Positions 5,501 through 23,250 of a stretch of 64,000 nt of DNA are shown here, one piece after another. The DNA is from an uncultured Myxococcales bacterium. GTDB taxonomy: Bacteria; Myxococcota_A; UBA9042. The notes under the pieces were generated by a model. That model did not search any database. It saw nothing but the letters and a program-made list of their open reading frames with translations, and had not been told where the DNA came from. The translations under genes were made by a program, and so were the position numbers. Location: NCBI GenBank assembly GCA_903842345.1, contig CAIMLR010000039.1:3984-67983 (forward strand), given 5' to 3'. Position 1 is the stretch's first letter; each line of letters opens with the position of its first letter.

Positions 5501-8500
5501 ACGACGCCGGCACGACGTGGCAATCCGTGCACTGGACGTCGCGGTGCCACGTGCTCGTGCTCAAGTGCTGCGCGTGCGCGCCCACCGCGGGTTGCGTCGT
5601 CAGCGTCTCGCCCTTGGTGCCCTTGGGCGGCGCCGGGTTGTTGGTCGCCGTGTCGCCGTGGCAAGCCGTGCAACTGAGCGCCGGCGCGTCGATGATGCCG
5701 TCCACGTGCCGCGTCGCGTCCTTCCAAACCACCGTCGGCGCCGCGCCGTTGAAGCCCGGCGTGAACGAACTGATCACCGCGCCGTGGCAGTCCTGGCAGT
5801 TGTTGTTCTGCACGTGGGGCGCGCCGGGCGGCGTCGTGTGGCAGCTCTGGCCGCAGGAATCGTACGTCCCGTCGACCTTCGTCCACACCGGCGTCATCTT
5901 CAGCGTGCCGGTCGCGTTGGCGCCGAACGGCAGCGTGTTGCCGTGGCAGTAGACGCCGCTGCACGTGACCGTCGCGGTGTCAAAGCTCGGCGTCGCGCCG
6001 TTGACCGCTGCTGGGCCACCCCAGGCAAAGTCAAAGACGCCGTTGCTGTGGCTCGTCGACGTCGGCACCACGTGACAGTCATCGCATTTCACCTGGCGGT
6101 GCCAGTTGCTGCTGTTCAAGTGCTGGGTGTGCGCGCCGACCGCCGCCTGACTGGTCAGCGTTTCGCCCTTGGTGCCGAGCGGCGGCGCCGGGTTGTTGTT
6201 CACCGCGTCGCCGTGGCACGTCGTGCACGTCAGGGTCTTGACCTCGAGAATGCCGTCAATGTGCAGCGCCTTGTCCTTCCAGACGGCCAGCTTGCCGATG
6301 GGGTCGTAGCTCTGGATGACTTCCGGGTGGCACGTGGCGCAATTGGTGTTCTGCGGGTGCGATCCGCCGGGCGGATTCGTGTGGCAGCTGGCACCGCAAG
6401 AGTCAAACGAGCCATCCACGGTCGTCCATACCGGCGTCTTGGCCGTCGCGCCGCCCGCATTGGCCGCCGCCAGCGTCGTGCCGTGGCAGTACACCGCGTT
6501 GCACGTCACCGTATTGGGCTCAAAAGTCGGATTCGCGCCCGCCGTCTTGGCAACCGTGCCCCACGTGATGTCCGCGGTGCCGTTGCTGTGCGTCGTGCTC
6601 TGCGGCACCGTGTGGCAATCGACGCATTGGCCGTCGCGGTGCCACGAACTTGCCGTCAGGTGCTGCTGGTGCGCGCCGACCGCCGCCTGATTCGTCGCCG
6701 TCTCGCCGTGCGTACCCAGCGGCGGTGCAGGATCGTTCGTCGCCGCCGTGCCGTGGCAAGTCGTGCAACTGAGCGTGATCACCTCGACCGTACCGTCGAT
6801 ATGCTTGCCCTTGTCGACCCACACGGCCGTCTTGGCGTTGGCGTCGTAGCTCTGGATGACGGTCGGGTGGCACATCTGGCAGTTGCTGTTTTGCGGATGC
6901 GATCCGCCCGGCGGATTGGTGTGGCAGCTCGCCCCGCAGGAATCGTACGTGCCGTTGACGGTCGTCCAGATCGGCGCCTTCTGCGTCGTCCCGCCGGGAT
7001 TGGCCGCCGGCAGCGTCGCGCCGTGGCAGTACACCGCGTTGCAGGTCACAGTCGCCGGATCAAACTGTGGCAGCGTGCCGCCCGTCGTCGCCAGCAGACC
7101 AAAATCGACGTCGTCCACGCCATTGGAGTGCAGCGTCTGCGCCGGCACTTTGTGGCAATCCGTGCACTGGACGTCGCGGTGCCACGTGCTCGCGCTCAGG
7201 TGCTGCGCGTGCGCGCCCACGGCCGGCTGGGTCGTCAGCGTCTCGCCCTTGGTGCCCTTGGGCGGCGCGGGATTGTTGCTGGCGGCATCGCCATGGCATG
7301 CCGTGCAGGTCAGCGCCGGCGCGTCGATGATGCCGTTCACGTGACGCGAAGCGTCCTTCCACACCACCGTCGGCAGCCCGCCATTGACGCCCGGCGTAAA
7401 CGACTGGATCACCTCGCCGTGGCACTGCTCGCACTTGGTGCTCTGCACGTGCGGCGCACCCGGCGGCGTCGTGTGGCAGCTCGCGCCACAGGAATCAAAG
7501 GTGCCATCCACCTGCGTCCAAATGGGCTCCTGTTTCAGCGTGCCGCCTGGATTGGGACCGAACAGCGTCACGCCGTGGCAGTACACGCTGCTGCAGGTCA
7601 CCGTGCTTGCGTCAAATGTCGGCTGCGCGCCGCCCACCGTGCTCGGACCGCCAAAGCTCATTTCGGTCGTGCCGTTGCTGTGCGAGACGGAAGCCGGGAC
7701 CGTGTGGCAATCCGTGCATTGACCCTGACGGTGCCACGAGCTCGCGCTCAGGTGATTCTGGTGCGCGCCCACCGCCGCCGCAGTCGTGGCGACCTCGCCG
7801 TGCGTCCCGGTCGGCGGCGCCGGATCGTTCTTGACCGCGTCGCCATGGCACGTCGTGCACGTCAGCGTCTTCACTTCCACAATGCCGTCGATGTGCAAGC
7901 CCGGGCTGTTCCAGCTCGCGTTCTTGGTCGCCGGGTCGTAGTTGGCGATGACTTCCGTGTGGCAAATCTGGCACGCGGTGCTCTGCGGGTGACTGCCGCC
8001 CGGCGGATTGGTGTGGCAGCTCGCGCCGCAGGAATCAAACGTCCCGTTGACGGTCGTCCACACCGGCGATTTCTTGGTCGTGCCGCCCTGATTGGCCGCG
8101 GGCAGCGTGTTGCCGTGGCAGTACACGGCGTTGCAGGTCAGCGTGCCGGCGTCAAACGCAGGCGTGCTGTTGGCTGCCGTTGCGACCGCGCCCCACAGGA
8201 ATTCCACAATGCCGTCCGTGTGCGTCATCGACGTCGGCACGACGTGGCAGTCCGTGCACTGGCCGTCGCGGTGCCACGAGCTCGCGCCGAGGTGCTGCGC
8301 GTGCGCGCCCACGGCCGCCTGCGAAGTCAGCGTCTCGCCGAGCGTGCCCTTGGGCGGTGCGGGGTTATTGGTCGGCGCATCGCCGTGACACGTCGTGCAC
8401 GTCAGGCTGGTCAGTTCCACGCTGCCGTCGATGTGCAGGCCCGGGCTGGCCCACGTCGCGGTCTGCGTCGCTGCGTCAAACGAGGCGATGACCGGCGTGT

Positions 8501-11273
8501 GGCACAGCGCGCACTTGTCGTTCTTGGGGTGCGTGCCGCCCGGCGGGTTGGTGTGGCAACTGGCGCCGCATGAATCAAATGTGCCATCGACCTGCGTCCA
8601 CTTCGGCTGCGTCTTGATGGTGCCACCAGCTTTCGGCCCTGGCAGGGTGTTGCCGTGGCAGTAGACGCCGGAGCACGTCGTGGTCGCGGCGTCAAAAGCC
8701 GGCAGGGAGTTGCTGGACGTCGCGACATCGCCCCACGTGAAATCGATCTGGTTGTTCGAGTGTCCGACGGAAGCCGGCACCGTATGGCAGTCCGTGCACT
8801 GCCCGTCACGGTGCCACGCGCTCGCGGTCAGGTGCTGCGCGTGCGCGCCAACTGCCGCCTGCGTCGTCAGCGTCTCGCCCTTGGTGCCCTTGGGCGGCGC
8901 GGGGTTGTTGCTGGCCGCGTCGCCGTGGCAAGTCGTGCAGGTCAGGCCAATCACGTCGACGTTGCCGTTGATGTGCAGCTCTGCCTTGTTCCACGTCGCG
9001 ACGAGCGTCGTTGCGTCGTAGCTGGCAATCACGTCCGTGTGGCACTGCTCACACTTGCTATTGTTCGGATGCTTGCCGCCCGGCGGATTGGTGTGGCAGC
9101 TCGCGCCGCACGACTCGAACGAGCCGTCGTTCTGCGTCCATACCGGCGTCTGCTTCAGCGTGCCGCCGACGTTCGGTCCGGCCTTCAGCGTCGTGCCGTG
9201 GCAATACGCCGTGGCGCAGGTCAGCGTCTCGCTGTTGAACACCGGCTGCGCGCCATCGGCGGCCGAAACCGTGCCCCAATTGAACTCCGTCACGCCATTG
9301 GTGTGCGTCGTGGACTGCGGCACCGTGTGGCAATCCGCGCACTGTCCCTGGCGGTGCCAATCGCTGCCCTTCAAGTGCTTCTGGTGCGCGCCCACCGCCG
9401 CTTGGGTCGGCAGCATTTCGCCCTTGGTGCCCTTGGGCGGCGCGGGGTCGTTGGCCAGCGCATCGCCGTGGCAGCTGGTGCAGGTCAGACCGACAACCTC
9501 GATCTTGCCGTTGACGTGCAGCGCCGGATTGTTCCAGCTCGCCGTCGCGCTGAGCGGGTCGTAGGAGGAGATGACGTCCGTGTGGCACTGGCTGCAATTG
9601 CTCGCCTGCGGATGCGGTTCTGCCGGCGGATTGGTGTGGCAGCTCGCGCCGCACGTTTCAAAGCTGCCGTCGACCTGGTTCCAAATCGGCTCATGTTTGA
9701 CGATGCCGCCGACCTTCGGGTTGCCCGTGGTCACGCCGTGGCAGTACGTGTTGGAGCAGGTCACCGTGCCCGCGTCGAACGTCGGGTTGGCGCCGCTGGC
9801 AGAAGCGACCGCGCTGAAGGCAAAATCAAACACGCCGTTGGAATGCGCCGTCGAATCCGGAAGCGCATGGCAGTCGGTGCACAGGACCTGACGGTGCCAA
9901 TTGCCGCCCACCAAGTGCGCCGTGTGCGCGCCGACCGCCGCTTGGCTTGTCAGCGTCTCGCCCTTGGTGCCCTTGGGCGGCGCCGGGTTGTTGTTGGCCG
10001 CGTCGCCGTGGCAGGACGTGCAAGTGAGGTTGCCCACTTCCAGCAATCCGTCGATGTGCAGGTTCGGATTGGCCCACGTCGCCTTGTTGGTCACCGGGTC
10101 AAACGTCGCGATCACTTCTCCGTGGCAATTTGCGCAGTTGCTGTCCAGCGGGTGCTTGCCGCCGGGCGGCACCGTGTGGCAAGCCGTGCCGCACGCTTCC
10201 TGCGACCCGTCCACGACGGTCCACGTCGGCGTTTTATTGGACGTCGCGCCAGGCGCATCGCCGACCGGCAGCGTTCCGCCGTGGCAGTAGGAGCCCGAGC
10301 ACTGCAGCGTCGTCTGATCAAACGTACCCTGCTTGGCCAGCGGTCCCCAGACAAAATCGACCTTCGAGTTGTAGTGCGTCGAGGCATACGGATTCGGCAC
10401 CGGGTGGCACTCGTTGCACGTCACATCATGGCGCCAATCGGCTTTCTTCAAGTGCGACTGGTGCGCGCCCACGCCCGCGTAGCTCGTCTCCGTATGGCCG
10501 GCGAGGTCGTACGGCGGCGCGGGATCGTCCCGCAGCTGATCGCCGTGACACATGAAGCAGGCGGGCAGCCACTGGCTGATTTTCACGTCCGCTGCATCCA
10601 CGCCCGCGTCGACGTCCGGCTGCGCGACGTCCGCGCTCGCATCCGTCGCAGCATCTTCCCCGACCGTATCCGTGCCCGCGACGTCCTGAACCGGCACATC
10701 ATCCACTGCGGCGATGTCCGCCACGTCATCCACGGGCACGTCCGGCGTCGCCACGTCGTCCATGACCTCGGTCAAGTCGGTCGCGTCCACGATGTCATCC
10801 GGGGTGAGGATGACGTCCGTACCCAGCGCGACGTCCTCGGGCACATCCGGCGGCACATCGACCGTCACATCGACCGTCACGTCCGGCGCCGCGTCGGGGG
10901 CGGCGTCCAGCGCTGCATCCGGGGCAATGTCCGTCGCAACGTCCGGGGCCACGTCCGGAATCAGGATGATATCAATATCGTCAGCCACATCGGACTGCGC
11001 GTCCGCCGTCTCGGCTGCGTCGACATCCTGGCTGGCATCCGTCGCCGCATCCCCCGCAACATCCGTGGACTGCACGTCGTCGTGGGTATCCGCCTGGGTG
11101 TCGAGCTTGGCGTCCGTCTGCCCGTCGCCGTCCAATTGCGAGACGGGCGCGTCGTCCAGGACGTCGGTGCCGGTCGAACTGGTCGTCGAAGCCTTGTCGC
11201 CACAGCCCAGGATCAGGAGCAATCCACAAAGTATTCCGATCCTTGCGATGGTCGGCGTGGTCAATTCTGGCAT
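2571..11273 (-). CDS. Giant lipoprotein multiheme c-type cytochrome (CxxxxCH/CxxCH-domain family), ~2900 aa
   Basis: ATG 11273 follows a G-rich RBS. Signal peptide with lipobox LILG-C, then a ~210-aa Asp-rich linker, 13 repeats each with 3 CxxCH + 1 CX4CH + 1 CX3CH and spare His residues, and a C-terminal domain with 8 further motifs. Confidence 0.93.
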   Translation of the reverse strand: MPELTTPTIARIGILCGLLLILGCGDKASTTSSTGTDVLDDAPVSQLDGDGQTDAKLDTQADTHDDVQSTDVAGDAATDASQDVDAAETADAQSDVADDIDIILIPDVAPDVATDIAPDAALDAAPDAAPDVTVDVTVDVPPDVPEDVALGTDVILTPDDIVDATDLTEVMDDVATPDVPVDDVADIAAVDDVPVQDVAGTDTVGEDAATDASADVAQPDVDAGVDAADVKISQWLPACFMCHGDQLRDDPAPPYDLAGHTETSYAGVGAHQSHLKKADWRHDVTCNECHPVPNPYASTHYNSKVDFVWGPLAKQGTFDQTTLQCSGSYCHGGTLPVGDAPGATSNKTPTWTVVDGSQEACGTACHTVPPGGKHPLDSNCANCHGEVIATFDPVTNKATWANPNLHIDGLLEVGNLTCTSCHGDAANNNPAPPKGTKGETLTSQAAVGAHTAHLVGGNWHRQVLCTDCHALPDSTAHSNGVFDFAFSAVASASGANPTFDAGTVTCSNTYCHGVTTGNPKVGGIVKHEPIWNQVDGSFETCGASCHTNPPAEPHPQASNCSQCHTDVISSYDPLSATASWNNPALHVNGKIEVVGLTCTSCHGDALANDPAPPKGTKGEMLPTQAAVGAHQKHLKGSDWHRQGQCADCHTVPQSTTHTNGVTEFNWGTVSAADGAQPVFNSETLTCATAYCHGTTLKAGPNVGGTLKQTPVWTQNDGSFESCGASCHTNPPGGKHPNNSKCEQCHTDVIASYDATTLVATWNKAELHINGNVDVIGLTCTTCHGDAASNNPAPPKGTKGETLTTQAAVGAHAQHLTASAWHRDGQCTDCHTVPASVGHSNNQIDFTWGDVATSSNSLPAFDAATTTCSGVYCHGNTLPGPKAGGTIKTQPKWTQVDGTFDSCGASCHTNPPGGTHPKNDKCALCHTPVIASFDAATQTATWASPGLHIDGSVELTSLTCTTCHGDAPTNNPAPPKGTLGETLTSQAAVGAHAQHLGASSWHRDGQCTDCHVVPTSMTHTDGIVEFLWGAVATAANSTPAFDAGTLTCNAVYCHGNTLPAANQGGTTKKSPVWTTVNGTFDSCGASCHTNPPGGSHPQSTACQICHTEVIANYDPATKNASWNSPGLHIDGIVEVKTLTCTTCHGDAVKNDPAPPTGTHGEVATTAAAVGAHQNHLSASSWHRQGQCTDCHTVPASVSHSNGTTEMSFGGPSTVGGAQPTFDASTVTCSSVYCHGVTLFGPNPGGTLKQEPIWTQVDGTFDSCGASCHTTPPGAPHVQSTKCEQCHGEVIQSFTPGVNGGLPTVVWKDASRHVNGIIDAPALTCTACHGDAASNNPAPPKGTKGETLTTQPAVGAHAQHLSASTWHRDVQCTDCHKVPAQTLHSNGVDDVDFGLLATTGGTLPQFDPATVTCNAVYCHGATLPAANPGGTTQKAPIWTTVNGTYDSCGASCHTNPPGGSHPQNSNCQMCHPTVIQSYDANAKTAVWVDKGKHIDGTVEVITLSCTTCHGTAATNDPAPPLGTHGETATNQAAVGAHQQHLTASSWHRDGQCVDCHTVPQSTTHSNGTADITWGTVAKTAGANPTFEPNTVTCNAVYCHGTTLAAANAGGATAKTPVWTTVDGSFDSCGASCHTNPPGGSHPQNTNCATCHPEVIQSYDPIGKLAVWKDKALHIDGILEVKTLTCTTCHGDAVNNNPAPPLGTKGETLTSQAAVGAHTQHLNSSNWHRQVKCDDCHVVPTSTSHSNGVFDFAWGGPAAVNGATPSFDTATVTCSGVYCHGNTLPFGANATGTLKMTPVWTKVDGTYDSCGQSCHTTPPGAPHVQNNNCQDCHGAVISSFTPGFNGAAPTVVWKDATRHVDGIIDAPALSCTACHGDTATNNPAPPKGTKGETLTTQPAVGAHAQHLSTSTWHRDVQCTDCHVVPASSLHSNGVDDVDFGTIAATGGTTPAWDVSTVTCNAVYCHGATLPAANSGGTTKKTPVWTTVNGTFDSCGASCHTNPPGGTHPQNTACATCHTDVIQSYDVATKTAVWADRALHIDGQVEVKAMTCTSCHGNAATNDPAPPLGTKGETQTSQAAVGAHQNHLTPSTWHRDGQCTDCHAVPVSMSHSDGTANMSFGTVATAAGATPAFDVATVTCNAVYCHGTTLPAANPGGITAKTPVWTTVNGTFDSCGASCHTNPPGGTHPQNTACATCHGEVIQSYDPGTKTAVWADSSKHVDGVLEVKTLTCTSCHGDVATNNPAPPMGTNGETLTTQPAVGAHSQHVSTSNWHRQVQCEDCHVVPSSTSHSNGVFDFAWGGPAAVNGAKPSFDTATATCSGVYCHGNTLPFGANATGTLKMTPVWTKVDGTYDSCGQSCHTTPPGLPHVQNNNCQDCHGAVIASFIPGVGKAPPTVVWQDATRHVDGVIDAPALSCTACHGDAVSNDPAPPKGTQGETLTSQPAVGAHQQHLGTNTWHRDGQCVDCHTVPAQPLHANGTDDINFGTIATSDGATPAFNASNVTCNAVYCHGTTLASANVSGTIKQTPVWTTVNGSFDACGLACHSIPVGGTHVAHTDCSICHTAVVASFDAATKVTTWKDRSLHVNGVVESNKYHNLAGWTTPNYGANHHGSNYFIRNQMRDEHNVACTTCHGANLDGGTVNVSCNNSTINCHGQNAPANGTGGDWKACNFCHGGATQNNPPHGVANETATTTLGVGKHAQHLAASTTHVAFACTACHTIPGAGDIAHIAQYVYSADLTTAGHHGDVAFPALPTTPLGSPTSAMTWAVATTAGTTPFTGRGTCTGNCHSSGRTGTATVQAPLVTPYWAGTGTTAWTVGSCAMCHATTPTSGTHSTHTKTSNNVGCIGCHPAATSALHMNGLRDVNATCSSASYTGSVATTRNATTGRVSCSGTCHGQSHNYSW
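3520..10560 (-). repeat. 13 intragenic tandem repeats of ~545 bp (~180 aa) with a higher-order ~1635-bp period
   Basis: Recurring unit CxxCHGD..PAPPxGTxGET..AVGAHxxHL..WHR..CxDCH..CxxxYCHG..CGxSCH..CxxCH..H(I/V)(D/N)G. Near-identical DNA blocks start at 4261 and 5896. Confidence 0.9.
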
Positions 11274-11351
11274 AGAGTCCCCCTGATTCTGACTGGCGAA
11301 AGCGGCGTAAGCACGGTGCGCAGCACATTCCACAGGCCACGCAGCGACCGT

Positions 11352-11367
11352 TGTCACGCTGATGACA
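11352..11367. promoter_or_regulatory. TGTCA-N6-TGACA palindrome (CooA/Crp-family-like box)
   Basis: TGTCACGCTGATGACA lies ~80-95 bp upstream of the cytochrome start codon. Confidence 0.35.
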
Positions 11368-11419
11368 CCCGCGAACAAGGGTCGAAACGGGTCGCATTTG
11401 GGTCGCATCAAGGCGAATC

Positions 11420-12455: not shown

Positions 12456-13046
12456 ATGCGTTCCATTGCCCCCAAGTGCCGCCGCGCGTTCTGCATCCTC
12501 GGAATGGGCGCCAGCTTCGCAGCCTGCAGCACGCCCGCAACCGACGCCCAGACAGACGCCACCGCGCTGGGCGATGCGACGCCACTGAGCGATGGCGATC
12601 CCTCGGTCGACGGCTTGATCCTGACCGATACGGCGACCGACGTTGCCGCTGCGGACGTGCAGGCTCTGTGCCTGGCCGCATCCCCCACTGGCGTGGTCTT
12701 TGACCCGACCCCGGTGGCCAGCGGTGCGATGGCGAGCGTCAAGCTCAGCAACTGCGGCTTGCAGGGCCTGTGCATCACCAGCATCGACCTGCAGTTGCAG
12801 TCCGCCTACGTCGGCGAGTACGGTGTGACGGCCAAGGGACTGGAAGCCATCTGTCCGGGCATTGACACCAAGAACGGACCGTCGGTGAGCAAGCCTTGCT
12901 GCATCGCGCCGAATACGACTGCGGGGCTGGAGGTCTACTTCACGCCCAAGTCCGCCAGCAGCAGCCCCAAGACCGCGCAGGTTTGGGTGACGTCCAACCT
13001 CGGCAAGACCGTCATCCTGATGCAGGGCATCGCGACCGGTCCGTAG
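12456..13046 (+). CDS. Putative lipoprotein with an Ig-like (ASH/choice-of-anchor D-like) domain
   Basis: Lipobox FAAC, Asp/Ala/Thr linker, then a beta-rich domain (VKLSNCG...LEVYFTP...AQVWVTSN). Confidence 0.6.
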   Translation: MRSIAPKCRRAFCILGMGASFAACSTPATDAQTDATALGDATPLSDGDPSVDGLILTDTATDVAAADVQALCLAASPTGVVFDPTPVASGAMASVKLSNCGLQGLCITSIDLQLQSAYVGEYGVTAKGLEAICPGIDTKNGPSVSKPCCIAPNTTAGLEVYFTPKSASSSPKTAQVWVTSNLGKTVILMQGIATGP

Positions 13047-13750: not shown

Positions 13751-14857
13751 TCAAGGGTGCAGCATACTCGCCGTCGCCCAACCGGACCACGCACCACCGG
13801 CGAGCGCTGCAGCAGCCGCGATCTGCACAACGCCAGCGGCGCGGGCTGCCCAACCACCGGGGGCGCGCGTCCGCACCAGCGCGGCGAGGAGCAGGGTCAG
13901 CAAGGCGAACGTCAGCGGATCGACGAACCACGCCGGGCCGAGAAATGCCGGCGCGGTCAGTGTCAGGAGCGCCAACGTGAGGCTCGCGCCGATGCCCGTC
14001 CAGGCGTCAAGGCGCGTGGCAAGCGGCGGCAGATCGGCGGCCAGCAGCAGCCCCAGCGAACCGATCCGGGCAAGCGCGAGCGCGACGCCGGCGAGGTCCC
14101 AGCCTTGGGCCTGCCCGGCAACCCGCGCAAAGCCCGGGGCGTGGGCCGGCAACGCCAGCGCGGCCACGGTCTGGCCAGCCAACAACAGCAGCGCGAGGAG
14201 CAGCAGCACCAACGCCGCGATCTTCAGGCGCGGCCGCGACCGACGGACGGCAATCCACGCGAGCAGCAGCGCGCCAAATTGCAGGCAACGCGCGATGCGA
14301 TCGGCCAGAAACCACAGAGCGGCGAGCGGCGCCGCGGCGATCTCCCCCGGACCGGCAAAGCGCCAGTCAGCGGCAACTTGCGGGAGGGGCAACGCGGCCG
14401 TCAGGTGCACGGGCTGCAGCAAACTGTCGCCAAACGGCGCAAACGGCAGCACCGCCAGGACAAGCGCCAGCGGCCAGCGGAGGTCGGACTCGAGCGCCGC
14501 GGCAAGGGCGAAGCTCGCAGTCAGCGCGGCGGGCAGCAGCCAGACGAGATTGGGCCACACAATCAGGGGCGCGGGCGGCTGGAGCACCGCGACCGGCAAC
14601 CACAGCAGCGCGATGCGCGCGACGGTCGACAACTGTTGCGGCGACGCGAGGCCGCGGAGCAGGAGCGCGAGGACGACAACGCCGCCAACAAGCCCCGGAC
14701 CGGGCGCCCCGAGGAGCAGCGGCACGGCGGTGAGACAGGTGACAAGCGCGATCGCGCGCTGCGGCCGTATCGCCAACCACACAAGGAGAGGCAGTGGCAG
14801 GAGCGCGAGCGGCGAGATTTCAACCGCGCCAAGCGCGAAGGACGGGAGTTGGAGCAC
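13751..14857 (-). CDS. Divergent CcsA/ResC-like polytopic membrane protein (cytochrome c biogenesis System II-like)
   Basis: Multiple TM segments. APLAALWFLADR..LQFGALL resembles PALQSxWLxxHV..LSYAALL, LGPAWFVDP resembles WGxYWxWDP, and the C-terminal MLHP resembles GLHSY. Directly follows a ResB-like gene. Confidence 0.55.
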   Translation of the reverse strand: MLQLPSFALGAVEISPLALLPLPLLVWLAIRPQRAIALVTCLTAVPLLLGAPGPGLVGGVVVLALLLRGLASPQQLSTVARIALLWLPVAVLQPPAPLIVWPNLVWLLPAALTASFALAAALESDLRWPLALVLAVLPFAPFGDSLLQPVHLTAALPLPQVAADWRFAGPGEIAAAPLAALWFLADRIARCLQFGALLLAWIAVRRSRPRLKIAALVLLLLALLLLAGQTVAALALPAHAPGFARVAGQAQGWDLAGVALALARIGSLGLLLAADLPPLATRLDAWTGIGASLTLALLTLTAPAFLGPAWFVDPLTFALLTLLLAALVRTRAPGGWAARAAGVVQIAAAAALAGGAWSGWATASMLHP

Positions 14858-14859
14858 GG

Positions 14860-15876
14860 CTAGTTCGCCTCAGGGTGCGACTGGCGCGCGCCCAGATAGA
14901 ACGCCGCGGCGAGTCCGAGGAACGCGAGGAGCAGAGGCGCAACAGTGCCAGACGGTGCCACTTGCAGCCGAATGAGCGGCTCGCCAGTCACTTGCGCGGA
15001 CGGCCGACCTTGGGGAAGGAGCTCGGGCGAAGCGAGGACGCGAATCGTCGGGTGCTCGGCGCCGTCGCTGACCAGCACAAACGGACCGGTTTCCTTGGCG
15101 ACGCTCGGCTGCAGGCGGGCGGCCATCGAGGGCGCTTCAGACAGGACGCCATCGGCGAGCGTCAAGGCAAACACACGGGAATCAGGAAGCTTTGCCTGCC
15201 AATTCAAAGTCAGGTTCGGCGGGAGCGGCGCCGTGGCGGTCGCCAGCCAGGTGAACTGCACACCCTGGTTCACCGCCGGCATCCCCGGCGCGAGGATGAC
15301 CTCATGGCGGAGACCCGCGCCCTCCACCTTGCACGCGAGCGAGTCCAGACCCGCGCGCGCACGGCAGGATGCCTGCCAGCGACCCGGCGCCGGTGCTGGC
15401 CCGCCGCCATCCGATCGCCACGCGGGAACGGTCGCCAGATCCGCGCCCACCGTCACGTCGAGCGCAACGGGCAGCTCCGTCGTCGTCCAAAGCCAGTAGC
15501 CCGCGACGACGGGCAGCGCGATCGCCAACAGCACCGCTCCCCGCTGACCGCGCGACCGCCCCATGAGCAACGCCGTCAACGCGGCAAAGACTGTCAGGCC
15601 AGCCAACAGGCAAACCACCAACGACCAAGCGAGGTTATCGAGACCGAGCGCGTGGAGCGCCAGCAGTTCTGAGCGGGGCAGGCCGTCCGTCGCCATTCCC
15701 GCGGCGTGCAATTGCGGCACCTGCGTGCCAAGCCACGCGACGCAGGACCACAGGAACGCCAGCATGGCGAGCGTTTGCGGTGAACCGGCAATGTCGAGGA
15801 GAACGTCAGGCAAAGGCCGCGATGCAGCAACCGTCAGCGCAGCCGTCAGGTCGCGCGCGCCGGAACGGTCACTCAC
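14860..15876 (-). CDS. Divergent ResB/Ccs1 (CcsB)-like membrane protein
   Basis: N-terminal S...LAML..LW..VAWLGTQVPQ...LGLDNLAWS resembles ResB GTxxPQ...LGLxxxYxS. C-terminal LQVAPSG...LGLAAAFY resembles ResB LQVxxDPG...GL..SFY. GTGA overlap with the khpA stop. Confidence 0.6.
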   Translation of the reverse strand: MSDRSGARDLTAALTVAASRPLPDVLLDIAGSPQTLAMLAFLWSCVAWLGTQVPQLHAAGMATDGLPRSELLALHALGLDNLAWSLVVCLLAGLTVFAALTALLMGRSRGQRGAVLLAIALPVVAGYWLWTTTELPVALDVTVGADLATVPAWRSDGGGPAPAPGRWQASCRARAGLDSLACKVEGAGLRHEVILAPGMPAVNQGVQFTWLATATAPLPPNLTLNWQAKLPDSRVFALTLADGVLSEAPSMAARLQPSVAKETGPFVLVSDGAEHPTIRVLASPELLPQGRPSAQVTGEPLIRLQVAPSGTVAPLLLAFLGLAAAFYLGARQSHPEAN

Positions 15877-16106
15877 GAGTCAACGAAATGGACCGTCACC
15901 CGCTGTTGGCGCAAGGCCGCCGCGGCGTGAACGAGGTTGCGGATGGCGCGAGCCGTGCGGCCCTGTTTGCCGATCACTTTGCCGATGTCTTCCCGACGCA
16001 CGAACAGACGGAGAACGACCCCTTGGTCGCCATTCTCCTCGTCCACGCGCACGTCTTCCGGGTGATCGACCAGTACGCTGGCGAGATAATGCAGAAATTC
16101 GCGCAT
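15873..16106 (-). CDS. khpA: KH-domain RNA-binding protein KhpA (YlqC)
   Basis: Motifs LVDHPEDV and DIGKVIGKQGRTARAIR; directly downstream of rpsP. Confidence 0.93.
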   Translation of the reverse strand: MREFLHYLASVLVDHPEDVRVDEENGDQGVVLRLFVRREDIGKVIGKQGRTARAIRNLVHAAAALRQQRVTVHFVDS

Positions 16107-16164: not shown

Positions 16165-16416
16165 TTACGCGCGGTCGAGCTGGCGGACGAGCGAGGCGAC
16201 GGTGTCCGACGGAGTCGCGCCAACGCCCACCCAGTGGTCATAGCGGGCGCGTTCAAGCGTCACGCGACCATGGAAGGCGCCCTTGGCGGCGGGATCGTAC
16301 GTGCCGATCTGCTCCAGAAAACGGCCGTCGCGGCGCGCTTCATTCGGCGCGGCAACGATGCGGTAGTACGGGTGTTTTTTGCCGCCAAAGCGGGCCAGAC
16401 GAATGCGAACCGACAT
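16165..16416 (-). CDS. rpsP: 30S ribosomal protein S16
   Basis: MSVRIRLARFGGKKHPYYRIV...RDGRFLEQIGTYDP...GATPSDTV. Confidence 0.98.
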   Translation of the reverse strand: MSVRIRLARFGGKKHPYYRIVAAPNEARRDGRFLEQIGTYDPAAKGAFHGRVTLERARYDHWVGVGATPSDTVASLVRQLDRA

Positions 16417-16464: not shown

Positions 16465-16493
16465 AGTCTAATGGGGATCGGAGGTCGTGTCAA
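16465..16493 (-). promoter_or_regulatory. Sigma-70 promoter of the rpsP operon
   Basis: Minus strand TTGACA-17 nt-TAGACT, about 50 bp upstream of the rpsP ATG. Confidence 0.8.
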
Positions 16494-16733
16494 TCTGATC
16501 CGCCACTCGCGGGAAGAATGGCCGCCGTTGACCGCCGTCCATGGGCGCGCCGCGGTCGGTTGTGGCGGCGGCAATGGCCAAAACGTGACGACGACCGCGA
16601 AGTCCCGCAAGTCCGCCGTAAACTTCCGGAGTTTGCGCGCTGGTTCACCGCGAGTTTACTTGCCGCTGGGCGCTGCGATCCGGTACGCTGAGGGATTGCG
16701 CCGATGGTGACAAACCGGCGAGGTGAACTGTCC

Positions 16734-18923
16734 ATGCGGATGCGGCCGACCAGCTTTCAAAATAGCCCAATTTTCGCCCTCTTGCCCCGCCTCGCTGCGG
16801 CGCTGATCGGCGTCTCAACCGCCATCGCATGCAGCACGCCGGCGGCCAACAAGGATGGCGACGCGATCGCGGACGACGCGACAACGGGCGACACCGGTGC
16901 TGAACTCGGCGCGGGACAGATCTGCCTGCCCGGCAGCGCGACCTCCTGCGCGACGGACGACTACGTGACGCGCTGCAACGACGGCGGCACGGCGATCGAG
17001 ACCGTGCTCTGCACCAACGGCGACGGCGAACCCACCAAGTGCTTTGAGAATGGCCGGTGCAGCGACTGCGTGCCAGGCCTCGGCAAGCGGTGCGCGCCAA
17101 CCGACTCGACCGTGGTCGAACATTGCGACGACACCGGCCGCTGGGTCACCGACCAGCAATGCGACGCGGCCAGCGGCCAGCAATGCGCGCCCGGCGGATT
17201 GTGCCAAAAAGCCTGCGACATCAACGTAAAAGCCAACAGCTACGTCGGATGCGCATTCTGGGCAACGGACCTCGACAACGCGTTCGTCCCCGGCGGCGCG
17301 CGGAGCTATTTTGACGCCGCCAACGCGCAGTACGCCATCGTCGTGTCCAATCCGTCAGACAAGCTGACCGCGGACATCAAGATCGGCTACTTTGAGGACG
17401 GCAAGGAACAGGAGCAGACGCTCGACTCCCAGAACAATCCGCTGGATTTGTCGCCACTTGGCCCGGGCGATCTGCGGACGTTCCTGCTGCCGCCGCGCAA
17501 CATCGACGCCACGTCATCGACGTTCCAGGCGTGGCGGGTCACGTCGTCGGCACCGATCGCGGCGTATCAGTTCAACCCGCTTGAAAACGTTGGCGTTTAC
17601 TCCAATGATGCGACGAATCTGCTGCCGGAAGAGCTGCTTGGCACCTACTACATCGCCATGACGCGCGAGGAGACGTTCTCCATTTTGCGCAGCTTCATCA
17701 CGATCGTCGCGACCCAGGGCGGCCAGACCAGCGTGACCGTGACGTTCCCGTCGCCCGACAATGACGCCAGCGGCGGAACGTGGCCGCTGCTCACGCTCGC
17801 CAGCCAGGATGGCGCGATCAAGTCCTACAAAAGCGGCGAATCTGCGTCGTTCACGCTGAGCCAGTGGGGCACGCTGAACATCGAGACGAACATGGTCGGC
17901 AGCGATCTGACGGGCGCGGTCATCCTGGCCGACAAGAAGATCGCGGTGTTCGCCGGCAGCGAAGCCGCCAACGTGCCCAACACCAACCACTGCGACGTCG
18001 CCAAATGCAAGCCGGGCGACCTGAGCACCGGCCAAAAGTGCGGCCACTGCGTGTGGGACGGCAAGACGCAATGCGCGAGCAACGACGACTGCGGCGCCTT
18101 TGTGATCTGCTGCGCCGACCATCTGGAAATGCAGATGTTTCCGGTGCCGGTGTGGGACAACCACTACGTGGCCGTGAAGCTGTTTCCGCGCGGCAAGGAG
18201 CGCGATTCGTGGCGCATCCTGGCGGCGACCGACGGCACGATCGTCAATCTGGTGCCCGCGCCCAAAGATCCCAAGGGCAAGGCGGTGAGCGTGCCGGTGC
18301 TGAACAAGGGCGAGTGGTACGAGTTCGAAACCGTCGACAACTTTGAGATTCTGTCCCGCCATGAGGACAAGACGCCCGCGCCGGTGTTGATCGGCCACTT
18401 CATGGCCAGCCAGGACGCCCCGGATCCCGGCGCGCAACCGGACGATGCCGGCACAGGCGATCCCGCGTTTCTGTTGGCGATTCCGTCGGCGCAGTGGCGC
18501 TCGGAGTACGTGTTCCTGACGCCGGACAAATACCGCTTCAACTACATCTCCGTCGCGGCGCCGATCCACCGCGTCTGCGGCACGACGACGGCAAACAAGG
18601 GCAAGACCTGCACGACGGACAGCGATTGCGGCGATGGCGCGGCGACCAACGCGTGCGCGGACGACACGGTCGTGACGTTTGACGGCCAGCCGGTGCCGCC
18701 CGACCAATTCTTCAACATTTCCAAGAGCTACAAAGGCGCGCGCTTTGCCGTGAACGCAGGTCCGCACACCGTGCGTGGCCTGCCGGTGCTCGGCACGGAT
18801 GGCAAGCCCGCGGAATCGCGCGTTGCCGTCGACGTCTACGGTTTTGACCAGTACGTGTCCTACGGCTATCCCGCCGGGCTGGACTTGAAGGACCTGAAAT
18901 ACGTCAAGCAACCGGGACAGTGA
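16734..18923 (+). CDS. IgGFc-binding-domain lipoprotein with Cys-rich repeats
   Basis: Lipobox AIAC, Cys-rich N-terminal region, and motifs SYVGCAFWATDLDN, AYQFNPL..YSNDA..LLP, ADHLEMQMFPV..W, GDPAF...QWR..Y.F and SYGYPAG. Confidence 0.85.
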   Translation: MRMRPTSFQNSPIFALLPRLAAALIGVSTAIACSTPAANKDGDAIADDATTGDTGAELGAGQICLPGSATSCATDDYVTRCNDGGTAIETVLCTNGDGEPTKCFENGRCSDCVPGLGKRCAPTDSTVVEHCDDTGRWVTDQQCDAASGQQCAPGGLCQKACDINVKANSYVGCAFWATDLDNAFVPGGARSYFDAANAQYAIVVSNPSDKLTADIKIGYFEDGKEQEQTLDSQNNPLDLSPLGPGDLRTFLLPPRNIDATSSTFQAWRVTSSAPIAAYQFNPLENVGVYSNDATNLLPEELLGTYYIAMTREETFSILRSFITIVATQGGQTSVTVTFPSPDNDASGGTWPLLTLASQDGAIKSYKSGESASFTLSQWGTLNIETNMVGSDLTGAVILADKKIAVFAGSEAANVPNTNHCDVAKCKPGDLSTGQKCGHCVWDGKTQCASNDDCGAFVICCADHLEMQMFPVPVWDNHYVAVKLFPRGKERDSWRILAATDGTIVNLVPAPKDPKGKAVSVPVLNKGEWYEFETVDNFEILSRHEDKTPAPVLIGHFMASQDAPDPGAQPDDAGTGDPAFLLAIPSAQWRSEYVFLTPDKYRFNYISVAAPIHRVCGTTTANKGKTCTTDSDCGDGAATNACADDTVVTFDGQPVPPDQFFNISKSYKGARFAVNAGPHTVRGLPVLGTDGKPAESRVAVDVYGFDQYVSYGYPAGLDLKDLKYVKQPGQ

Positions 18924-19014
18924 GCCATCGCGGCGCGCCCCGATTGCCCTGCCCCGCTGTTTGCCGAATCACGTTGGCCGTTCCATCGGCACCGTGCGGT
19001 TTGAAGGAGTCGCC

Positions 19015-22000
19015 ATGAATCCGCAACGCCAGTCGTTCCGACCGCTTGCCCACGTGTTGCTGCTGCTGGGCGTCGTCCACGGCCTCGCGCTGACCGCGTG
19101 CAGTTCACCGTCTTCCGGCGGCCAAGCCAATCAGGCCGATCAGGACGTCGCGACCGGCGATGCAACGGCGACCGACGCGATCGCGGGGAAGGACGCGATT
19201 GCCGCCTCCGACGCAAGCACGCAGACACAAGCCGGTTTCTCGCTTGAATCGCTGAGCCCGTCTGAAGGACGCGCAAGCGGCGGCGAATCCATCGTGCTCA
19301 ATGGCCACGGCTTCACGGACGGCGTCCAGGTGATCTTCGGCAGCGCGCCGCTCGACGCGGCTGTCGTGTACGTGATCGACGAATCGCAAATCCAGATCAC
19401 CACGCCGCCGCATGAGACGGGGCTTGTGGACGTGACGGTCGTGCTGCCGGGCGACAAGCCCAAGTCGGCGTCGCTGGCCAAGGCGTACCTGTATTTCAAC
19501 GACGTGCTCGTGACCAAGGTCGATCCGCCGCAGGGTCCGACGGCGGGCGGGACGGCGATCAGCATCCACGGCACCGGCTTCACGGGCGACTGTCAGGTCC
19601 TGGTTGGCGGCAAGCAGGCGCTGAACGTCCAGGTGGTGTCCGACGACACCGTGACGGCCATCACGCCGCCGGGCGCGTTTGGCGCGGTGCCGGTTCACGT
19701 CATCAACACGCGCGGCACAGGCCTGCTCAAGAAAGGCTTCTTCTACACCGCGGCGCCGACCATCACGTCCGTTTCGCCTGCTTCCGGTCCCACCGTCGGC
19801 GGCACACAGGCGATTGTCCACGGCACCGGCTTCAGCGCCGACGTTGACCTCCAAATCGGCGCCGGCAAGGCCACCGTCATCAGCGTGAAGGGCAGCACGG
19901 AAGCGCACATCACCACGCCGCCGGGCGCCGCGGGCAAAACGGACGTGACGGCGACAACCGCGTTTGGCGCCAACACCCTGGCGGGCGGTTACGTCTACTC
20001 CGACGACACCGGCGCGGCTGCCACGCAAATCCTGTCGATTGCCCCGCCAAGCGGCCCGTTGGCCGGCGGCAACACCGTCGCCCTCATCGCCACCGGACTC
20101 ATTGCCAAGAGCGACACGACGGTCCTGTTCGGGCAGAAACTCGCGGAAATCCTCAGCGTCGACGCCGTCGCCCACACGGCGCTCGTCTCCGTGCCCGCGG
20201 GCAGCGCGGTCGGCGCGGTCGACGTCACGCTCATGACGTCCAAAGGCACCGACAAGGCGACTGGCGGCTACACCTACAACGATGTCCTCACCGTCACTGG
20301 CATCTCGCCCTCGGCGGGCCCCAGCGAAGGCGGCACCAAGATCGTCATCCACGGCAGCGGCTTCAGCAAAGGCAGCGTCAACGTCAAGATCGGCGCGCTG
20401 GCGGCGAGCGCCGTTGCCATCGTCAGCGACAGCGAAATCCAGGCCATCACGCCACCCGGCCAGCCCGGTTATGCCGACGTCACCGTGCTCAACGACGTCG
20501 CGGCGGTCACGCTCACCGCCGGCTACACGTACACCGGCGGCAAATTGGCGCTCTACGTCGTCTACCCGCCGATGGGCGCGCAGGCGGGCGGCACGCTTGT
20601 CCACGTCTACGGCCAGGGCTTTGACGCGGGCATGGGCGTCACGTTCGGCGGCAATCCGGCGACGCACTTCACGTTCGTCGATCCCGGCCACGTCACGGTC
20701 AAGACGCCGCCCGGCAAGGTCGGCTCGGTCGACGTCGGCGTCACGGTCAAGGACGGCAAGGCGACTTTGACCAATGGCTACGCCTACTTCAACCCCATGT
20801 CCGGCAACGGCGGCACGTGGGGCAGCACCGTCGACGGCTCCGTCAACATCACCGTCCTGGACGCCAGCAACAACGCCGCCATTCCCGACGCGTTCACGAT
20901 GCTGTGGACCGATCCGACGACGCCGTACCAGGGCTACACCAACGCCGATGGCCAGATCACCTTCTCCGGCGACGACTTGAGCGGCAAACAGATGATCTCC
21001 GCATCCAAGACTGGCTACGACGCCGCCTCCGTGGTGCTGTTTGACGCGCAAAACGTCACGGTGCACCTGCATCCGACCTCGCCGCCCTCGCCCGGCGGCC
21101 CGCCGCCTGGGCAGATTCCGCCGACGATTTCTGGCCACGTGACCGGCGTCGACAAGTACGTCTTTGTGCCCAACGGCGACTGCAACCAGTACACCGGCCA
21201 GGGTCCGGGCGCGACGTGCAACGCGTGCTCCGCGGACAGCCAGTGCGGCGCGGGCTTCGCGTGCTTGGACATCGGCGCCGACGGCAGCGGCAACACCAAC
21301 GGCAAGCGCTGCGTCGCCGATTGCGGCCAAGGCCAAGGCTGTCCGGCGCAGTTCAAGTGCGCGGGCGTCGGCACGTCCGGCTTCCGCTGCATCCCCGCCG
21401 CGGGCGAGATCGCGTCATTCTGCCTGCATTCCAAGCCGGCGCTGTTCAGCCAGGACGACTACCCGGCCGAAGGCCCGGGCTTCACCGCCGATCCGCTGAA
21501 AGCCTACGCGTACAAAATCGAAGTCGCGCCGGGTGAGCAGGCCGTCATCTGCTTTGGCGGCTACAAGACCTTTGGCGCGGTCCTGCAGGCCGACGACGCG
21601 ACGTCCATGGCCGCGTTCACGCCGACCGTCATGGGCATCAAGCGCCACGTGATGGTGCAGCCGGAGGAGCAGGTCACCGGCGTGGACGTCAAGCTGGACA
21701 CGCCGCTGGGCCAAACCGCGTCCGTCCGCCTCGACCAGCCGCCGACGTGGGGCGCGCCGGCGTCGACCATCATCAACTACGTCCAGCCGCAGCTGATCCT
21801 CGGCTCCGATGGCGCGCTGCGCTGGCCGACGCGCGCCTACAAGTTCGAGTTCGACGTTGATCCGAGCTTCATGACGTTGACCAACCTGCCCAACAGCTTC
21901 TCGGGCGATCTCGCCGACGCGTCCTTGACCCTTGAGACGTTCGTTTTTGACCTGAACGAGGCGACGCAGCTGCCGCGCTCCATCAACATCAAGGACAACG

Positions 22001-23250
22001 TGCGCACTTTGGCCGACGACCGGATGATTCGCCGCGTGGTCGGCGGCGACTTCGAATCCGTGGAAACCGGCGTCAAAAAGAACATCTACGGCATGTGGGG
22101 CACCAGCGCGCAGAACGTCTATGCAGTCGGCGCGCTCGGTTCGCTGTGGCACTGGGACGGCGGCGGCTGGACGCAGCAGGCCACGGTCGCCAAGGCCGAT
22201 TGGCGCGGCGTCTTCGGCGTCGACGCACAGAACATCTTCGCCGTCGGCTTGGCCGGCACCGCCGCCGTTTTTGACGGCATGACGTGGAAAGTCGCCGCCG
22301 TCGCCGGTAACCAGAACCTCACTGGCGTCTTCGCCGCGACAAGCCCCGGCGGCATCGTCGCCTTCGCGTCGAGCCAATCCGGCATCTACAAATACGCCGC
22401 CGCGAGCGGTTGGCAAAAAGACAGCCTCTACAGCAACTTTCTTGCCATCCACGGCAGCGACGCGACGCACATGTGGGCCGTCGGCATGACCGGCGCGCTT
22501 GCCGCATGGGACGGCGCAAGTTGGACCAATCAGGCATCCGGGACGTCCATCGCGTTGCGCGACGTCTGGGCGGCGAGCGCGACGCTCGTCTACGCGGTCG
22601 GCGAGAAGGGCATCATCCTCAAGTACGACGGCAAGTCGTGGAAGCCAATGAACTCCGGCGTGACCACGACGCTATCCTCGGTTTGGGGCAACGCGGGCGA
22701 CGACGTGTGGGCCGTGGGCGCGCGCGGCGTGGTGCTGCACTACAACGGCAAGACGTGGCAGAAGGTGCCGGGCCAAGCGCTGGACAAGCTGCTGGACGCG
22801 GTGTGGACGTCGCCAGCGGGCGATCTGTTTGCCCTGGGCGAGCAGGAACTGCTGATCACGCCGCTCATCTATCCGCCGCTGGCCGTGATGCCCAAGCCGG
22901 ACGCCGTGCTCATCGGCAACAAGCTGAAGTGGAGCGTGGACACGAGCTATCCGGAGCCGCACTTCAACTGGGTGACAATCGGCGCGCCCAATCCGATGGC
23001 GCCGACGGATCCGAGCAAGGACACGCCGGTGTGGAACATCGTGCAAAAGGGCAGCGTGAGTGAAGTCGACCTGCCCGATTTTCCGTCGATCCAGGGCACG
23101 CCCGGGATTCCCAAAGGCAAGCAGCTGCGGCTGACCATCATCCGCGGCTACAAGGAAGGCTTTGACATCGACGCGTACACGGAGAACGACCTGAACGCGT
23201 ACTACTGGCACGCGTGGGCCGAGCACTCCTTCTTCTTTACCGCGCAGTAA
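19015..23250 (+). CDS. Large lipoprotein: 6 IPT/TIG domains, a carboxypeptidase-regulatory-like domain, a Cys-rich region and beta-propeller repeats
   Basis: ATG after AAGGAG; lipobox LTAC. Six repeats of P..G...GG....I.G.GF...TPP...Y.Y. C-terminal repeats of the type VWG....VWAVG..G..L.YDG..W. Confidence 0.85.
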   Translation: MNPQRQSFRPLAHVLLLLGVVHGLALTACSSPSSGGQANQADQDVATGDATATDAIAGKDAIAASDASTQTQAGFSLESLSPSEGRASGGESIVLNGHGFTDGVQVIFGSAPLDAAVVYVIDESQIQITTPPHETGLVDVTVVLPGDKPKSASLAKAYLYFNDVLVTKVDPPQGPTAGGTAISIHGTGFTGDCQVLVGGKQALNVQVVSDDTVTAITPPGAFGAVPVHVINTRGTGLLKKGFFYTAAPTITSVSPASGPTVGGTQAIVHGTGFSADVDLQIGAGKATVISVKGSTEAHITTPPGAAGKTDVTATTAFGANTLAGGYVYSDDTGAAATQILSIAPPSGPLAGGNTVALIATGLIAKSDTTVLFGQKLAEILSVDAVAHTALVSVPAGSAVGAVDVTLMTSKGTDKATGGYTYNDVLTVTGISPSAGPSEGGTKIVIHGSGFSKGSVNVKIGALAASAVAIVSDSEIQAITPPGQPGYADVTVLNDVAAVTLTAGYTYTGGKLALYVVYPPMGAQAGGTLVHVYGQGFDAGMGVTFGGNPATHFTFVDPGHVTVKTPPGKVGSVDVGVTVKDGKATLTNGYAYFNPMSGNGGTWGSTVDGSVNITVLDASNNAAIPDAFTMLWTDPTTPYQGYTNADGQITFSGDDLSGKQMISASKTGYDAASVVLFDAQNVTVHLHPTSPPSPGGPPPGQIPPTISGHVTGVDKYVFVPNGDCNQYTGQGPGATCNACSADSQCGAGFACLDIGADGSGNTNGKRCVADCGQGQGCPAQFKCAGVGTSGFRCIPAAGEIASFCLHSKPALFSQDDYPAEGPGFTADPLKAYAYKIEVAPGEQAVICFGGYKTFGAVLQADDATSMAAFTPTVMGIKRHVMVQPEEQVTGVDVKLDTPLGQTASVRLDQPPTWGAPASTIINYVQPQLILGSDGALRWPTRAYKFEFDVDPSFMTLTNLPNSFSGDLADASLTLETFVFDLNEATQLPRSINIKDNVRTLADDRMIRRVVGGDFESVETGVKKNIYGMWGTSAQNVYAVGALGSLWHWDGGGWTQQATVAKADWRGVFGVDAQNIFAVGLAGTAAVFDGMTWKVAAVAGNQNLTGVFAATSPGGIVAFASSQSGIYKYAAASGWQKDSLYSNFLAIHGSDATHMWAVGMTGALAAWDGASWTNQASGTSIALRDVWAASATLVYAVGEKGIILKYDGKSWKPMNSGVTTTLSSVWGNAGDDVWAVGARGVVLHYNGKTWQKVPGQALDKLLDAVWTSPAGDLFALGEQELLITPLIYPPLAVMPKPDAVLIGNKLKWSVDTSYPEPHFNWVTIGAPNPMAPTDPSKDTPVWNIVQKGSVSEVDLPDFPSIQGTPGIPKGKQLRLTIIRGYKEGFDIDAYTENDLNAYYWHAWAEHSFFFTAQ

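Follow-up and report, generated by a model that had tools for sequence, protein, structure and literature searches.

This report concerns two adjoining genes, here called A and B, in a 64,000-nucleotide stretch of DNA from an uncultured Myxococcales bacterium (contig CAIMLR010000039.1), which we refer to as the window. Both open reading frames (ORFs) are present on the minus strand at the initially annotated coordinates: gene A (14860-15876) encodes 338 amino acids, and gene B (13751-14857), whose start is 2 nucleotides past the A stop, encodes 368. A is a divergent membrane protein of the ResB/CcsB family that lacks the first transmembrane heme-ligand histidine (TM-His1), and B is a polytopic membrane protein with some 12 helices and no conserved histidine. 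All of the sequence landmarks named in the initial annotation are present. In A, these are GTQVPQ (residues 50-55), LGLDN (77-81) and LQV..G...FY (303-325), and in B they are LGPAWFVDP (306-314), WFLADR (182-187), ALVR (326-329) and the terminal LH (366-367).

The pair sits in a ribosomal protein operon. Its first gene is rpsP, which codes for ribosomal protein S16 (16165-16416, minus strand; PF00886, E = 3.8e-22). The apparent gap of 288 base pairs upstream of A is occupied by a previously unlisted ORF, khpA (15873-16106, minus strand; PF13083, E = 1e-22), encoding a small KH-domain RNA-binding protein of 77 amino acids, and the TGA stop codon of khpA overlaps the GTG start codon of A in the sequence GTGA. 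Upstream of rpsP is a sigma-70-like match (16465-16493, minus strand; TTGACA-17-TAGACT, 10/12) that is a possible operon promoter, although it is only a consensus match (1 found versus 0.1 expected in shuffled sequences). Given the overlap of the khpA stop with the A start, and given that rpsP has the promoter-like site upstream, we treat rpsP-khpA-A-B as one unit, in which A and B are likely co-transcribed with rpsP and khpA. The usual followers rimM-trmD-rplS do not come after khpA at this locus. Instead, the unit converges on comF, with map beyond. All 13 loci examined, each from a different genome, have the gene order rpsP-khpA-A-B, with khpA between the S16 gene and A in every case. The region is 70% G+C, and its plus strand is strongly skewed toward A over T, as is produced by a Leu/Ala/Val-rich membrane gene on the minus strand. 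An antisense ORF at 13757-14863 on the plus strand was ruled out as a real gene, since homologues, a hydrophobic profile and the higher G+C content at third codon positions are all found for the minus-strand frame instead.

A and B are real, conserved genes. Relatives at 52-64% identity number six for A and seven for B. The order to which the window belongs was sampled through 37 genomes of a single family, 24 of which are at least 90% complete (hereafter good genomes). A match to the A family is present in 29 of the 37, in all 24 good genomes, and in 13 of 14 genera. Among 301 genomes sampled across the phylum, all 23 from the window's family carry an A-family match, and outside of this family only weak matches were recovered, from 3 genomes within its class. 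In 19 of 30 family loci, A is clearly followed by a hydrophobic ORF that is 360 amino acids or longer; 4 others are cut by the locus end, and the remaining 7 are ambiguous because the first-start ORF is over-extended. A locus search using the genus alignment returned one locus, from an uncultured Myxococcales metagenome-assembled genome.

Both genes are also clearly under purifying selection. Pairwise Nei-Gojobori ratios of nonsynonymous to synonymous substitution rates (dN/dS, or omega) for the closest pair of genomes (G000 and G003, dS about 0.35) are 0.153 for A and 0.191 for B. The corresponding neighbor values are 0.083 for map, 0.111 for comF, 0.215 for a 196-amino acid lipoprotein, 0.064 for p739 and 0.074 for p1429 (the last three are described below). 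A and B evolve faster than their neighbors, yet remain clearly constrained. A dN/dS check for decay had been called for at the outset, and the values of 0.15 for A and 0.19 for B are far from 1.

The initial annotation described A as ResB-like, and this is upheld by profile-profile comparison, by transitive alignment and by neighbors in the ESM Atlas, even though Pfam is blind to the relationship. PF05140, the ResB model, gives no match to A at E ≤ 1, no other Pfam or NCBIfam model detects A, and 20 divergent A homologues likewise go undetected by both collections (none for PF05140 at E ≤ 0.1). A six-frame PF05140 search of the genome finds only a canonical resB gene on another contig, and when the word-index search was repeated with the A alignment, it recovered the same 7 proteins and no others. 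In the ESM Atlas, 24 of the 30 clusters nearest to A carry PF05140 (score 0.92). We then compared an alignment of 27 A-family sequences by hhalign with a reference set of 22 ResB proteins from the phylum. The match to all 22 has E = 0.0011-0.002 over about 220 collinear columns, and the match to short ResB forms reaches E = 1.9e-4, with A residues 28-99 placed on ResB residues 15-87. In these alignments GTQVPQ falls on ResB GT(L/I)(I/V)PQ and LGLDNLAWS falls on LGLxDvxhS. Control comparisons of A with CcsA, CcmF and B gave E values of 0.04-0.55, and the positive control of CcsA versus CcmF gave 3.8e-16.

A broad A profile also retrieved a bridging clade from three sister families, whose members we denote A'. 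The A family matches A' with E = 8.3e-16 (311 columns), and A' matches ResB with E = 3.5e-20 (358 columns). Through this bridge, A is a ResB/CcsB homologue, albeit a very distant one.

The predicted layout of A likewise agrees with ResB topology, based on hydrophobic segments and low-confidence secondary structure, with orientation assigned by the positive-inside rule. The amino terminus is predicted to be cytoplasmic and is followed by the first transmembrane helix (TM1), a short periplasmic loop, TM2, a basic cytoplasmic loop (GRSRGQRG, between TM2 and TM3), TM3, a periplasmic domain and TM4. The GTQVPQ motif (15712-15729, minus strand) is placed at the periplasmic end of TM1, and its residues Q52, P54 and Q55 are each found in 26 of the 27 family members. 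A beta-rich periplasmic stretch of about 175 amino acids spans residues 135-310. Within it, Cys171 and Cys182 (15331-15366, minus strand) are both retained in 27 of 27 sequences, and they likely form a disulfide.

What sets the pair apart is the absence of the histidines on which its putative relatives depend. Published work (PMC6299221) states that all four histidines of CcsBA are required, and that the heme-handling family is defined by a tryptophan-rich WWD motif flanked by two periplasmic histidines (P-His1 and P-His2). TM-His1, at the start of ResB TM3, is present in 22 of 22 reference ResB proteins, in none of 6 A' proteins and not in A. The second transmembrane histidine (TM-His2) is found in 10 of 11 reference CcsA proteins, the exception being a short paralogue of 281 amino acids, and in none of the 8 B' proteins, as we call the products encoded next to A'. 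P-His1 occurs in 11 of 11 CcsA and 7 of 8 B' proteins, and P-His2 occurs in 11 of 11 and 6 of 8, respectively. B has neither of these flanking histidines. The best histidine column of the A family is occupied in 11 of 27 sequences (H75, which is not at the TM-His1 site and is found essentially in one genus plus a few others), and that of the B family is occupied in 9 of 23. Met, Tyr and Lys all stay below 40% in every column of both family alignments (27 A and 23 B sequences).

These alignments confirm that all four heme-ligand histidines are absent from the A-B pair. The loss is thus more thorough than initially claimed, given that no histidine column of either family exceeds the occupancies above. 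The suggested erosion of the WWD tryptophans is borne out as well, since B retains only one. B lacks the WGxxWxWDxKE consensus, and among the 23 family members only D313 and P314 of the motif are conserved. One detail of the initial annotation is probably wrong. It equated WFLADR of B with the P-His1 region, and hhalign instead places this region near B residues 249-255. This misplacement leaves the conclusion on histidine loss unchanged.

In the sister-family pairs (loci L131 and L134-L142; genomes G264, G303, G336, G329, G330, G332, G249 and G334), neither transmembrane histidine survives, but both periplasmic histidines are mostly retained, and the WWD motif is partly eroded. These pairs combine a System II framework with a ligand set like that of CcmC.

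The ancestry of B is more difficult to establish. Neither PF01578 nor any other Pfam model matches B or its 13 divergent homologues, and a PF01578 search of the genome finds three other genes, but not B. A search of 1.84 billion representatives with the B profile yielded no more than 5 proteins, none from outside the family, and B has no named neighbor in the ESM Atlas (best score 0.78). Likewise, hhalign comparisons of the B family with CcsA, CcmF or B' are nonsignificant (E = 0.14-0.8), including E = 0.45-0.8 versus CcsA/CcmF and 0.58-0.73 versus CcmF alone, and genus-level alignments find nothing when compared with the genome's own CcsA of 602 amino acids. When whole, subgroup and C-terminally trimmed alignments of B were compared with B' and CcsA, the best E value was 0.012, which we do not count as evidence because both alignments had been trimmed post hoc. 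A hidden Markov model match of B to one B' protein (E = 3.7e-4 among 71 ORFs) was also set aside due to heavy composition bias.

Several observations nevertheless point in the same direction. Whenever B was compared by hhalign with CcsA or B', each time without significance, the GPAWFVDP sequence of B (residues 307-314; 13916-13939, minus strand) was laid on WGxxWxWDP, as expected for a remnant of the WWD motif, and the C-terminal GW..AS(M/L)xxP tail of B was laid on the CcsA/B' tail, again without significance. D313 (23/23) and P314 (22/23) are the most conserved residues of the B family. Moreover, B holds the same slot after A as B' holds after A'. In the bridging clade, A' is followed by B' on the same strand in 7 of 8 loci, the eighth locus ending 310 bases past the B' gene. 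B' itself is recognizably related to CcsA (hhalign E = 4.8e-12), and the B' protein of genome G264 passes the PF01578 threshold with 36.3 bits against a cutoff of 29.9. Finally, an AlphaFold model of B (predicted local distance difference test score, or pLDDT, of 74; predicted template modeling score 0.77) resembles CcmF (6zmq; Z 10.1, root mean square deviation 5.3, 204 residues, 16% identity), although such Z values are common for helical bundles. This chain ranks fourth among 48,161 and is the only match that spans the whole B model, whereas the remaining top rows are helical-bundle submatches of about 110 residues. The CcmF match is not conclusive by itself, given how common such values are among helical proteins.

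The observations on position, motif placement, fold and the modeled complex (see below) agree that B is probably a decayed CcsA, and we regard descent from CcsA as quite likely. The original description of B as CcsA-like is therefore plausible, and its placement of the WWD remnant is consistent with our alignments, but the relationship falls short of statistical demonstration at E = 0.45-0.8.

A model of the A-B complex supports the idea that the two proteins bind each other. Its interface score ipSAE (interaction prediction score from aligned errors) is 0.80, compared to 0.00 for the best of three controls. The mark used for this score is reached by 116 of 157 solved complexes and by 2 of 215 mismatched pairs, counts that apply only roughly here because our own alignments were used. 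The runs share at least 88% of their contacts, and the pLDDT of each partner is at least 79. In the model, TM1, the loop that follows it (residues 50-64), TM3 and TM4 of A contact B residues 281-365, including the loop at 303-314, such that GTQVPQ of A and GPAWFVDP of B both lie within the predicted interface. Conserved polar residues at the periplasmic membrane face are predicted to touch one another, namely Q52, P54, Q55, D64, G65 and R68 of A, and D313 and P314 of B.

The initial annotation proposed, as one of two options, that the pair is an accessory or dedicated maturation factor for a nearby cytochrome rich in CX3CH and CX4CH motifs. This giant multiheme cytochrome c (2571-11411, minus strand; 2,946 amino acids) lies 2.3 kb from the pair, and we regard it as context rather than as part of the A-B system. 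Its 73 heme motifs comprise 44 CX2CH, 15 CX3CH, 13 CX4CH and 1 CX6CH, and about 13 repeats of about 180 amino acids each carry CX2CH, CX2CH, CX4CH, CX3CH and CX2CH. The protein matches PF14522 and PF09698 (the Geobacter CX4CH...CX2CH motif family), and its N-terminal region is of low complexity and rich in Asp, Ala, Val and Pro. Other contigs also encode paralogues of 700-3,300 amino acids, which occur in 9 of 14 genera, and genome G000, of the window's genus, has 23 PF09698 matches.

The distribution of these cytochromes does not follow that of the pair. The cytochrome repeat is found in 24 of the 37 genomes of the order and in 17 of the 24 good genomes, with PF09698 present in the same 24 and 17. 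The initial annotation had called for a test of co-occurrence between the pair and CX4CH cytochromes, and the expected association was not found, in that the pair is present in 24 of 24 good genomes and the cytochromes in 17 of 24. Seven good genomes (G015, G017, G018, G021, G023, G034 and G035) have the pair but neither the cytochrome repeat nor PF09698, and among the 13 loci examined the cytochrome adjoins the pair in only one other, which belongs to the window's own genus (L093). The presence of A-B is thus independent of the giant cytochrome, and the pair shows neither the co-occurrence nor the co-localization with a special cytochrome that would be expected for a synthetase of the NrfI/CcsA1 type.

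A canonical maturation system elsewhere in the genome had also been proposed as something to look for, and genes of both System I and System II were found. Genome G000 encodes CcmF (about 796 amino acids) and CcmE of System I, as well as a System II ResB (404 amino acids) with an unusually long CcsA (602 amino acids) that carries WGRFWGWDPKE and its histidine residues. These genes are on contigs C2, C14, C20 and C21 (loci L001-L004 and L144). The same genome also encodes a CcsA-like paralogue of 281 amino acids without the WWD consensus and TM-His2. The reading of A-B as a dedicated maturase fails because the pair occurs regardless of the cytochrome, because its locus is fixed at rpsP-khpA, and because canonical systems are present elsewhere.

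In genome G001, from a sister genus (C30:165443-170938, partly L071), a CX4CH cytochrome of 940 amino acids adjoins a canonical-looking ResB/CcsA pair (PF05140, PF01578). This pair is a better candidate than A-B for a synthetase dedicated to odd heme motifs.

Several neighbors of the unit share its conservation. The order map-comF-[B-A]-khpA-rpsP-p739-p1429-p649 is kept in 13 loci from 13 genomes, as far as the contigs extend. The genes for p739 (IgGFc_binding domain), p1429 (six IPT/TIG domains) and p649 (YCF48-like BNR propeller) encode large secreted proteins at 16704-25240 on the plus strand. They are divergent from rpsP, keep their order across the family's genera and are 47-58% identical between genera. 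Between map and comF lies the ORF of 196 amino acids mentioned above (12456-13046, plus strand), which has no Pfam match and is fast-evolving, with 52% identity within the genus and an omega of 0.215 for the closest pair. Its first-start form overlaps an over-extended comF ORF.

Comparison with characterized systems helps to define what has been kept and what has been lost. The closest architecture is System II CcsB-CcsA (ResB-ResC, or the fused CcsBA of Helicobacter hepaticus), with which the pair shares the two-gene order of a ResB-like gene followed by a CcsA-like gene. A shares the region of TM1-GTxxPQ and the LGLD...S of TM2, together with a layout of four transmembrane helices and a large periplasmic domain. 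In B, as in CcsA, two helices and a short tail come after a periplasmic GxxWxxDP loop, and the predicted heterodimer joins the transmembrane helices of A to the C-terminal helices of B. In contrast to System II, A-B lacks TM-His1, TM-His2, P-His1 and P-His2, its WWD tryptophans are down to one, neither protein reaches a Pfam threshold, and A has a short periplasmic domain of about 175 amino acids with an invariant Cys pair. The pair also differs in sitting in a ribosomal protein operon while intact System I and System II genes are found elsewhere.

The bridging A'-B' pairs (sister families f45, f47 and f50 of the same class) have the same gene order and have also lost TM-His1 and TM-His2. They differ in that B' is still a recognizable CcsA that mostly keeps P-His1 and P-His2 and more of the WWD motif, and in their genomic context. 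For example, the G264 locus lacks rpsP, and the N-terminus of a neighboring ORF there looks like dephospho-CoA kinase by eye. Of the System I proteins, CcmF gives the B model its best full-length structural match, but the WWD motif and the two periplasmic histidines, all retained in CcmC and CcmF, are missing from B. CcmC, as described in PMC6299221, is a WWD protein that works without transmembrane histidines, and in this respect it is similar to the intermediate stage represented by A'-B'.

Dedicated CcsA paralogues for odd heme motifs, such as Wolinella NrfI/CcsA1, offer another comparison. In those organisms, which likewise have many multiheme cytochromes, an extra System II-type pair accompanies the canonical pair. 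However, these paralogues, whether of the anammox or NrfI/CcsA1 type, keep the histidines and a recognizable, slightly modified WWD motif, whereas A-B has lost both the motif and the histidines and does not co-occur with special cytochromes. The second CcsA-CcsB pair of anammox bacteria has a modified but clear motif, WGXXAWGXYFLWDAK (PMC4222556), and it is the nearest published case that we found. A full-text literature search, which did not cover supplements, returned no description of ResB/CcsA-type proteins without the histidines.

We favor the interpretation that A-B is a repurposed, non-heme-ligating derivative of System II, or pseudo-synthetase, rather than a dedicated maturase, and we consider this somewhat better than an even proposition. 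Repurposing of a System II scaffold was the second option of the initial annotation, and it fits the System II ancestry of A, the histidine loss, the selection on both genes, the predicted complex and the presence of canonical systems elsewhere. According to this proposal, A and B would be two subunits of a membrane complex descended from CcsB/ResB and CcsA/ResC. The order of histidine losses was probably stepwise. The two transmembrane histidines would have been lost first, which is the state of the sister families today, and the window's family would later have lost the periplasmic pair as well, along with most of the tryptophan-rich WWD motif. Because the known histidine ligands are all lost, the complex should be unable to hold heme through them, and it most likely no longer acts as a heme exporter or heme lyase. 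Assembly may have been retained through TM1, TM4 and the post-TM1 loop of A, and through the last three helices and the WWD remnant of B. The periplasm-facing polar patch might then handle something other than histidine-ligated heme, or the complex might act as a scaffold. A role not involving heme is suggested by these considerations, and any new activity or binding site would be expected at the conserved polar patch (the residues of A and B listed above).

A number of points weigh against this interpretation. Loss of the histidines is no proof that heme handling has been lost, since heme might still be bound through unconserved or unusual ligands, or free of axial ligands. No Pfam or NCBIfam model detects A, B, the 20 divergent A homologues or the 13 divergent B homologues, and when PDB sequences were searched by hmmsearch, the profiles of A and B gave 0 matches at E ≤ 10. 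The sequence of B shows no significant relationship to CcsA, CcmF or B'. For A, the AlphaFold model is poor (pLDDT of 40) and unfit for structure search. Structural similarity to CcsBA, which the initial annotation proposed to examine, was seen only in part. The B model has its weak likeness to CcmF, but helical bundles commonly reach Z values such as 10.1, Foldseek against the PDB gives nothing at E ≤ 0.001 (E = 0.33), and CcsBA chains are absent from both lists of structure matches for B. The score of the complex model may partly reflect memory of solved CcsBA-type complexes, and co-transcription with rpsP is deduced from gene overlap only.

Some of these points invite the alternative that A alone derives from ResB, and that B is an unrelated polytopic protein that replaced CcsA in a function with no mechanistic link to heme handling. 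All comparisons of B with CcsA and B' are statistically null, the ESM Atlas offers no named neighbor, the search of 1.84 billion representatives found only its own family, and its approximately 12 helices would make B longer than a reference CcsA of 312 amino acids. We nonetheless consider this alternative unlikely. B is positionally equivalent to B' downstream of a ResB-like gene, every run aligns its DP with the DP of WWD and its C-terminal GW...S(M/L)(H/x) with the tail of CcsA/B', CcmF is the sole full-length fold match, and the predicted interface uses exactly the loop of the WWD remnant and its flanking helices. We give still less credence to a persisting role in cytochrome c maturation, for instance as an apocytochrome holdase or as a lyase that receives heme from the canonical systems and acts on the CX3CH/CX4CH sites of the giant cytochromes through other ligands. 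System II descent would suit such a role, as would the existence of dedicated CcsA paralogues with the modified anammox motif (PMC4222556) and the richness of the window's genus in CX4CH cytochromes, one of them 2.3 kb from the pair. However, neither A nor B has a conserved His, Met, Tyr or Lys that could serve. Furthermore, the pair is fixed beside rpsP-khpA in 13 of 13 loci while the cytochrome is adjacent only within the window's genus, seven good genomes have the pair without the repeat or PF09698, and the CX4CH cytochrome of G001 adjoins a different, canonical-looking ResB/CcsA pair.

It is very improbable that the pair is a functionless remnant, with two pseudogenes in the making. Such an idea could draw on the disappearance of all catalytic ligands and on the fast evolution of the pair, with 55-64% identity within the genus compared to 78-99% for map, comF, S16, p739 and p1429 (in G006). 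Yet the reading frames are intact in 30 loci, the pair is present in 24 of 24 good genomes and 13 of 14 genera, omega is 0.15 and 0.19 at a dS of about 0.35, several residues are invariant across the family, and the translational coupling with khpA is conserved.

Returning to the proposal that A-B is a repurposed System II derivative, its implications extend beyond this locus. The heme-handling superfamily and its ResB partner have been understood through four histidines and the WWD motif, and every studied member moves or attaches heme. A-B would constitute a natural loss-of-ligand experiment, identifying the GTxxPQ of TM1, the DP of WWD and the A-B interface as structural parts. Our results also correct the appealing but mistaken idea that A-B acts for the adjoining 73-heme cytochrome. 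We suggest only tentatively that A-B is the first ligand-free complex of heme-handling and ResB type to be kept as the core pair of a whole bacterial family, where it would be expressed from the rpsP-khpA operon, with the CcsBA architecture re-used for another periplasm-facing task. Such a task might be to move or present a non-heme hydrophobic molecule, or to scaffold envelope assembly. If this is true, then the sister-family pairs that keep only periplasmic histidines record a stepwise path from a synthetase to a new function. The graded series from four histidines (canonical), to two periplasmic histidines (sister families), to none (the window's family) provides a testable path in which a heme exporter or lyase would have lost transport before ligation, and A-B would point to an unrecognized second use of this membrane scaffold.

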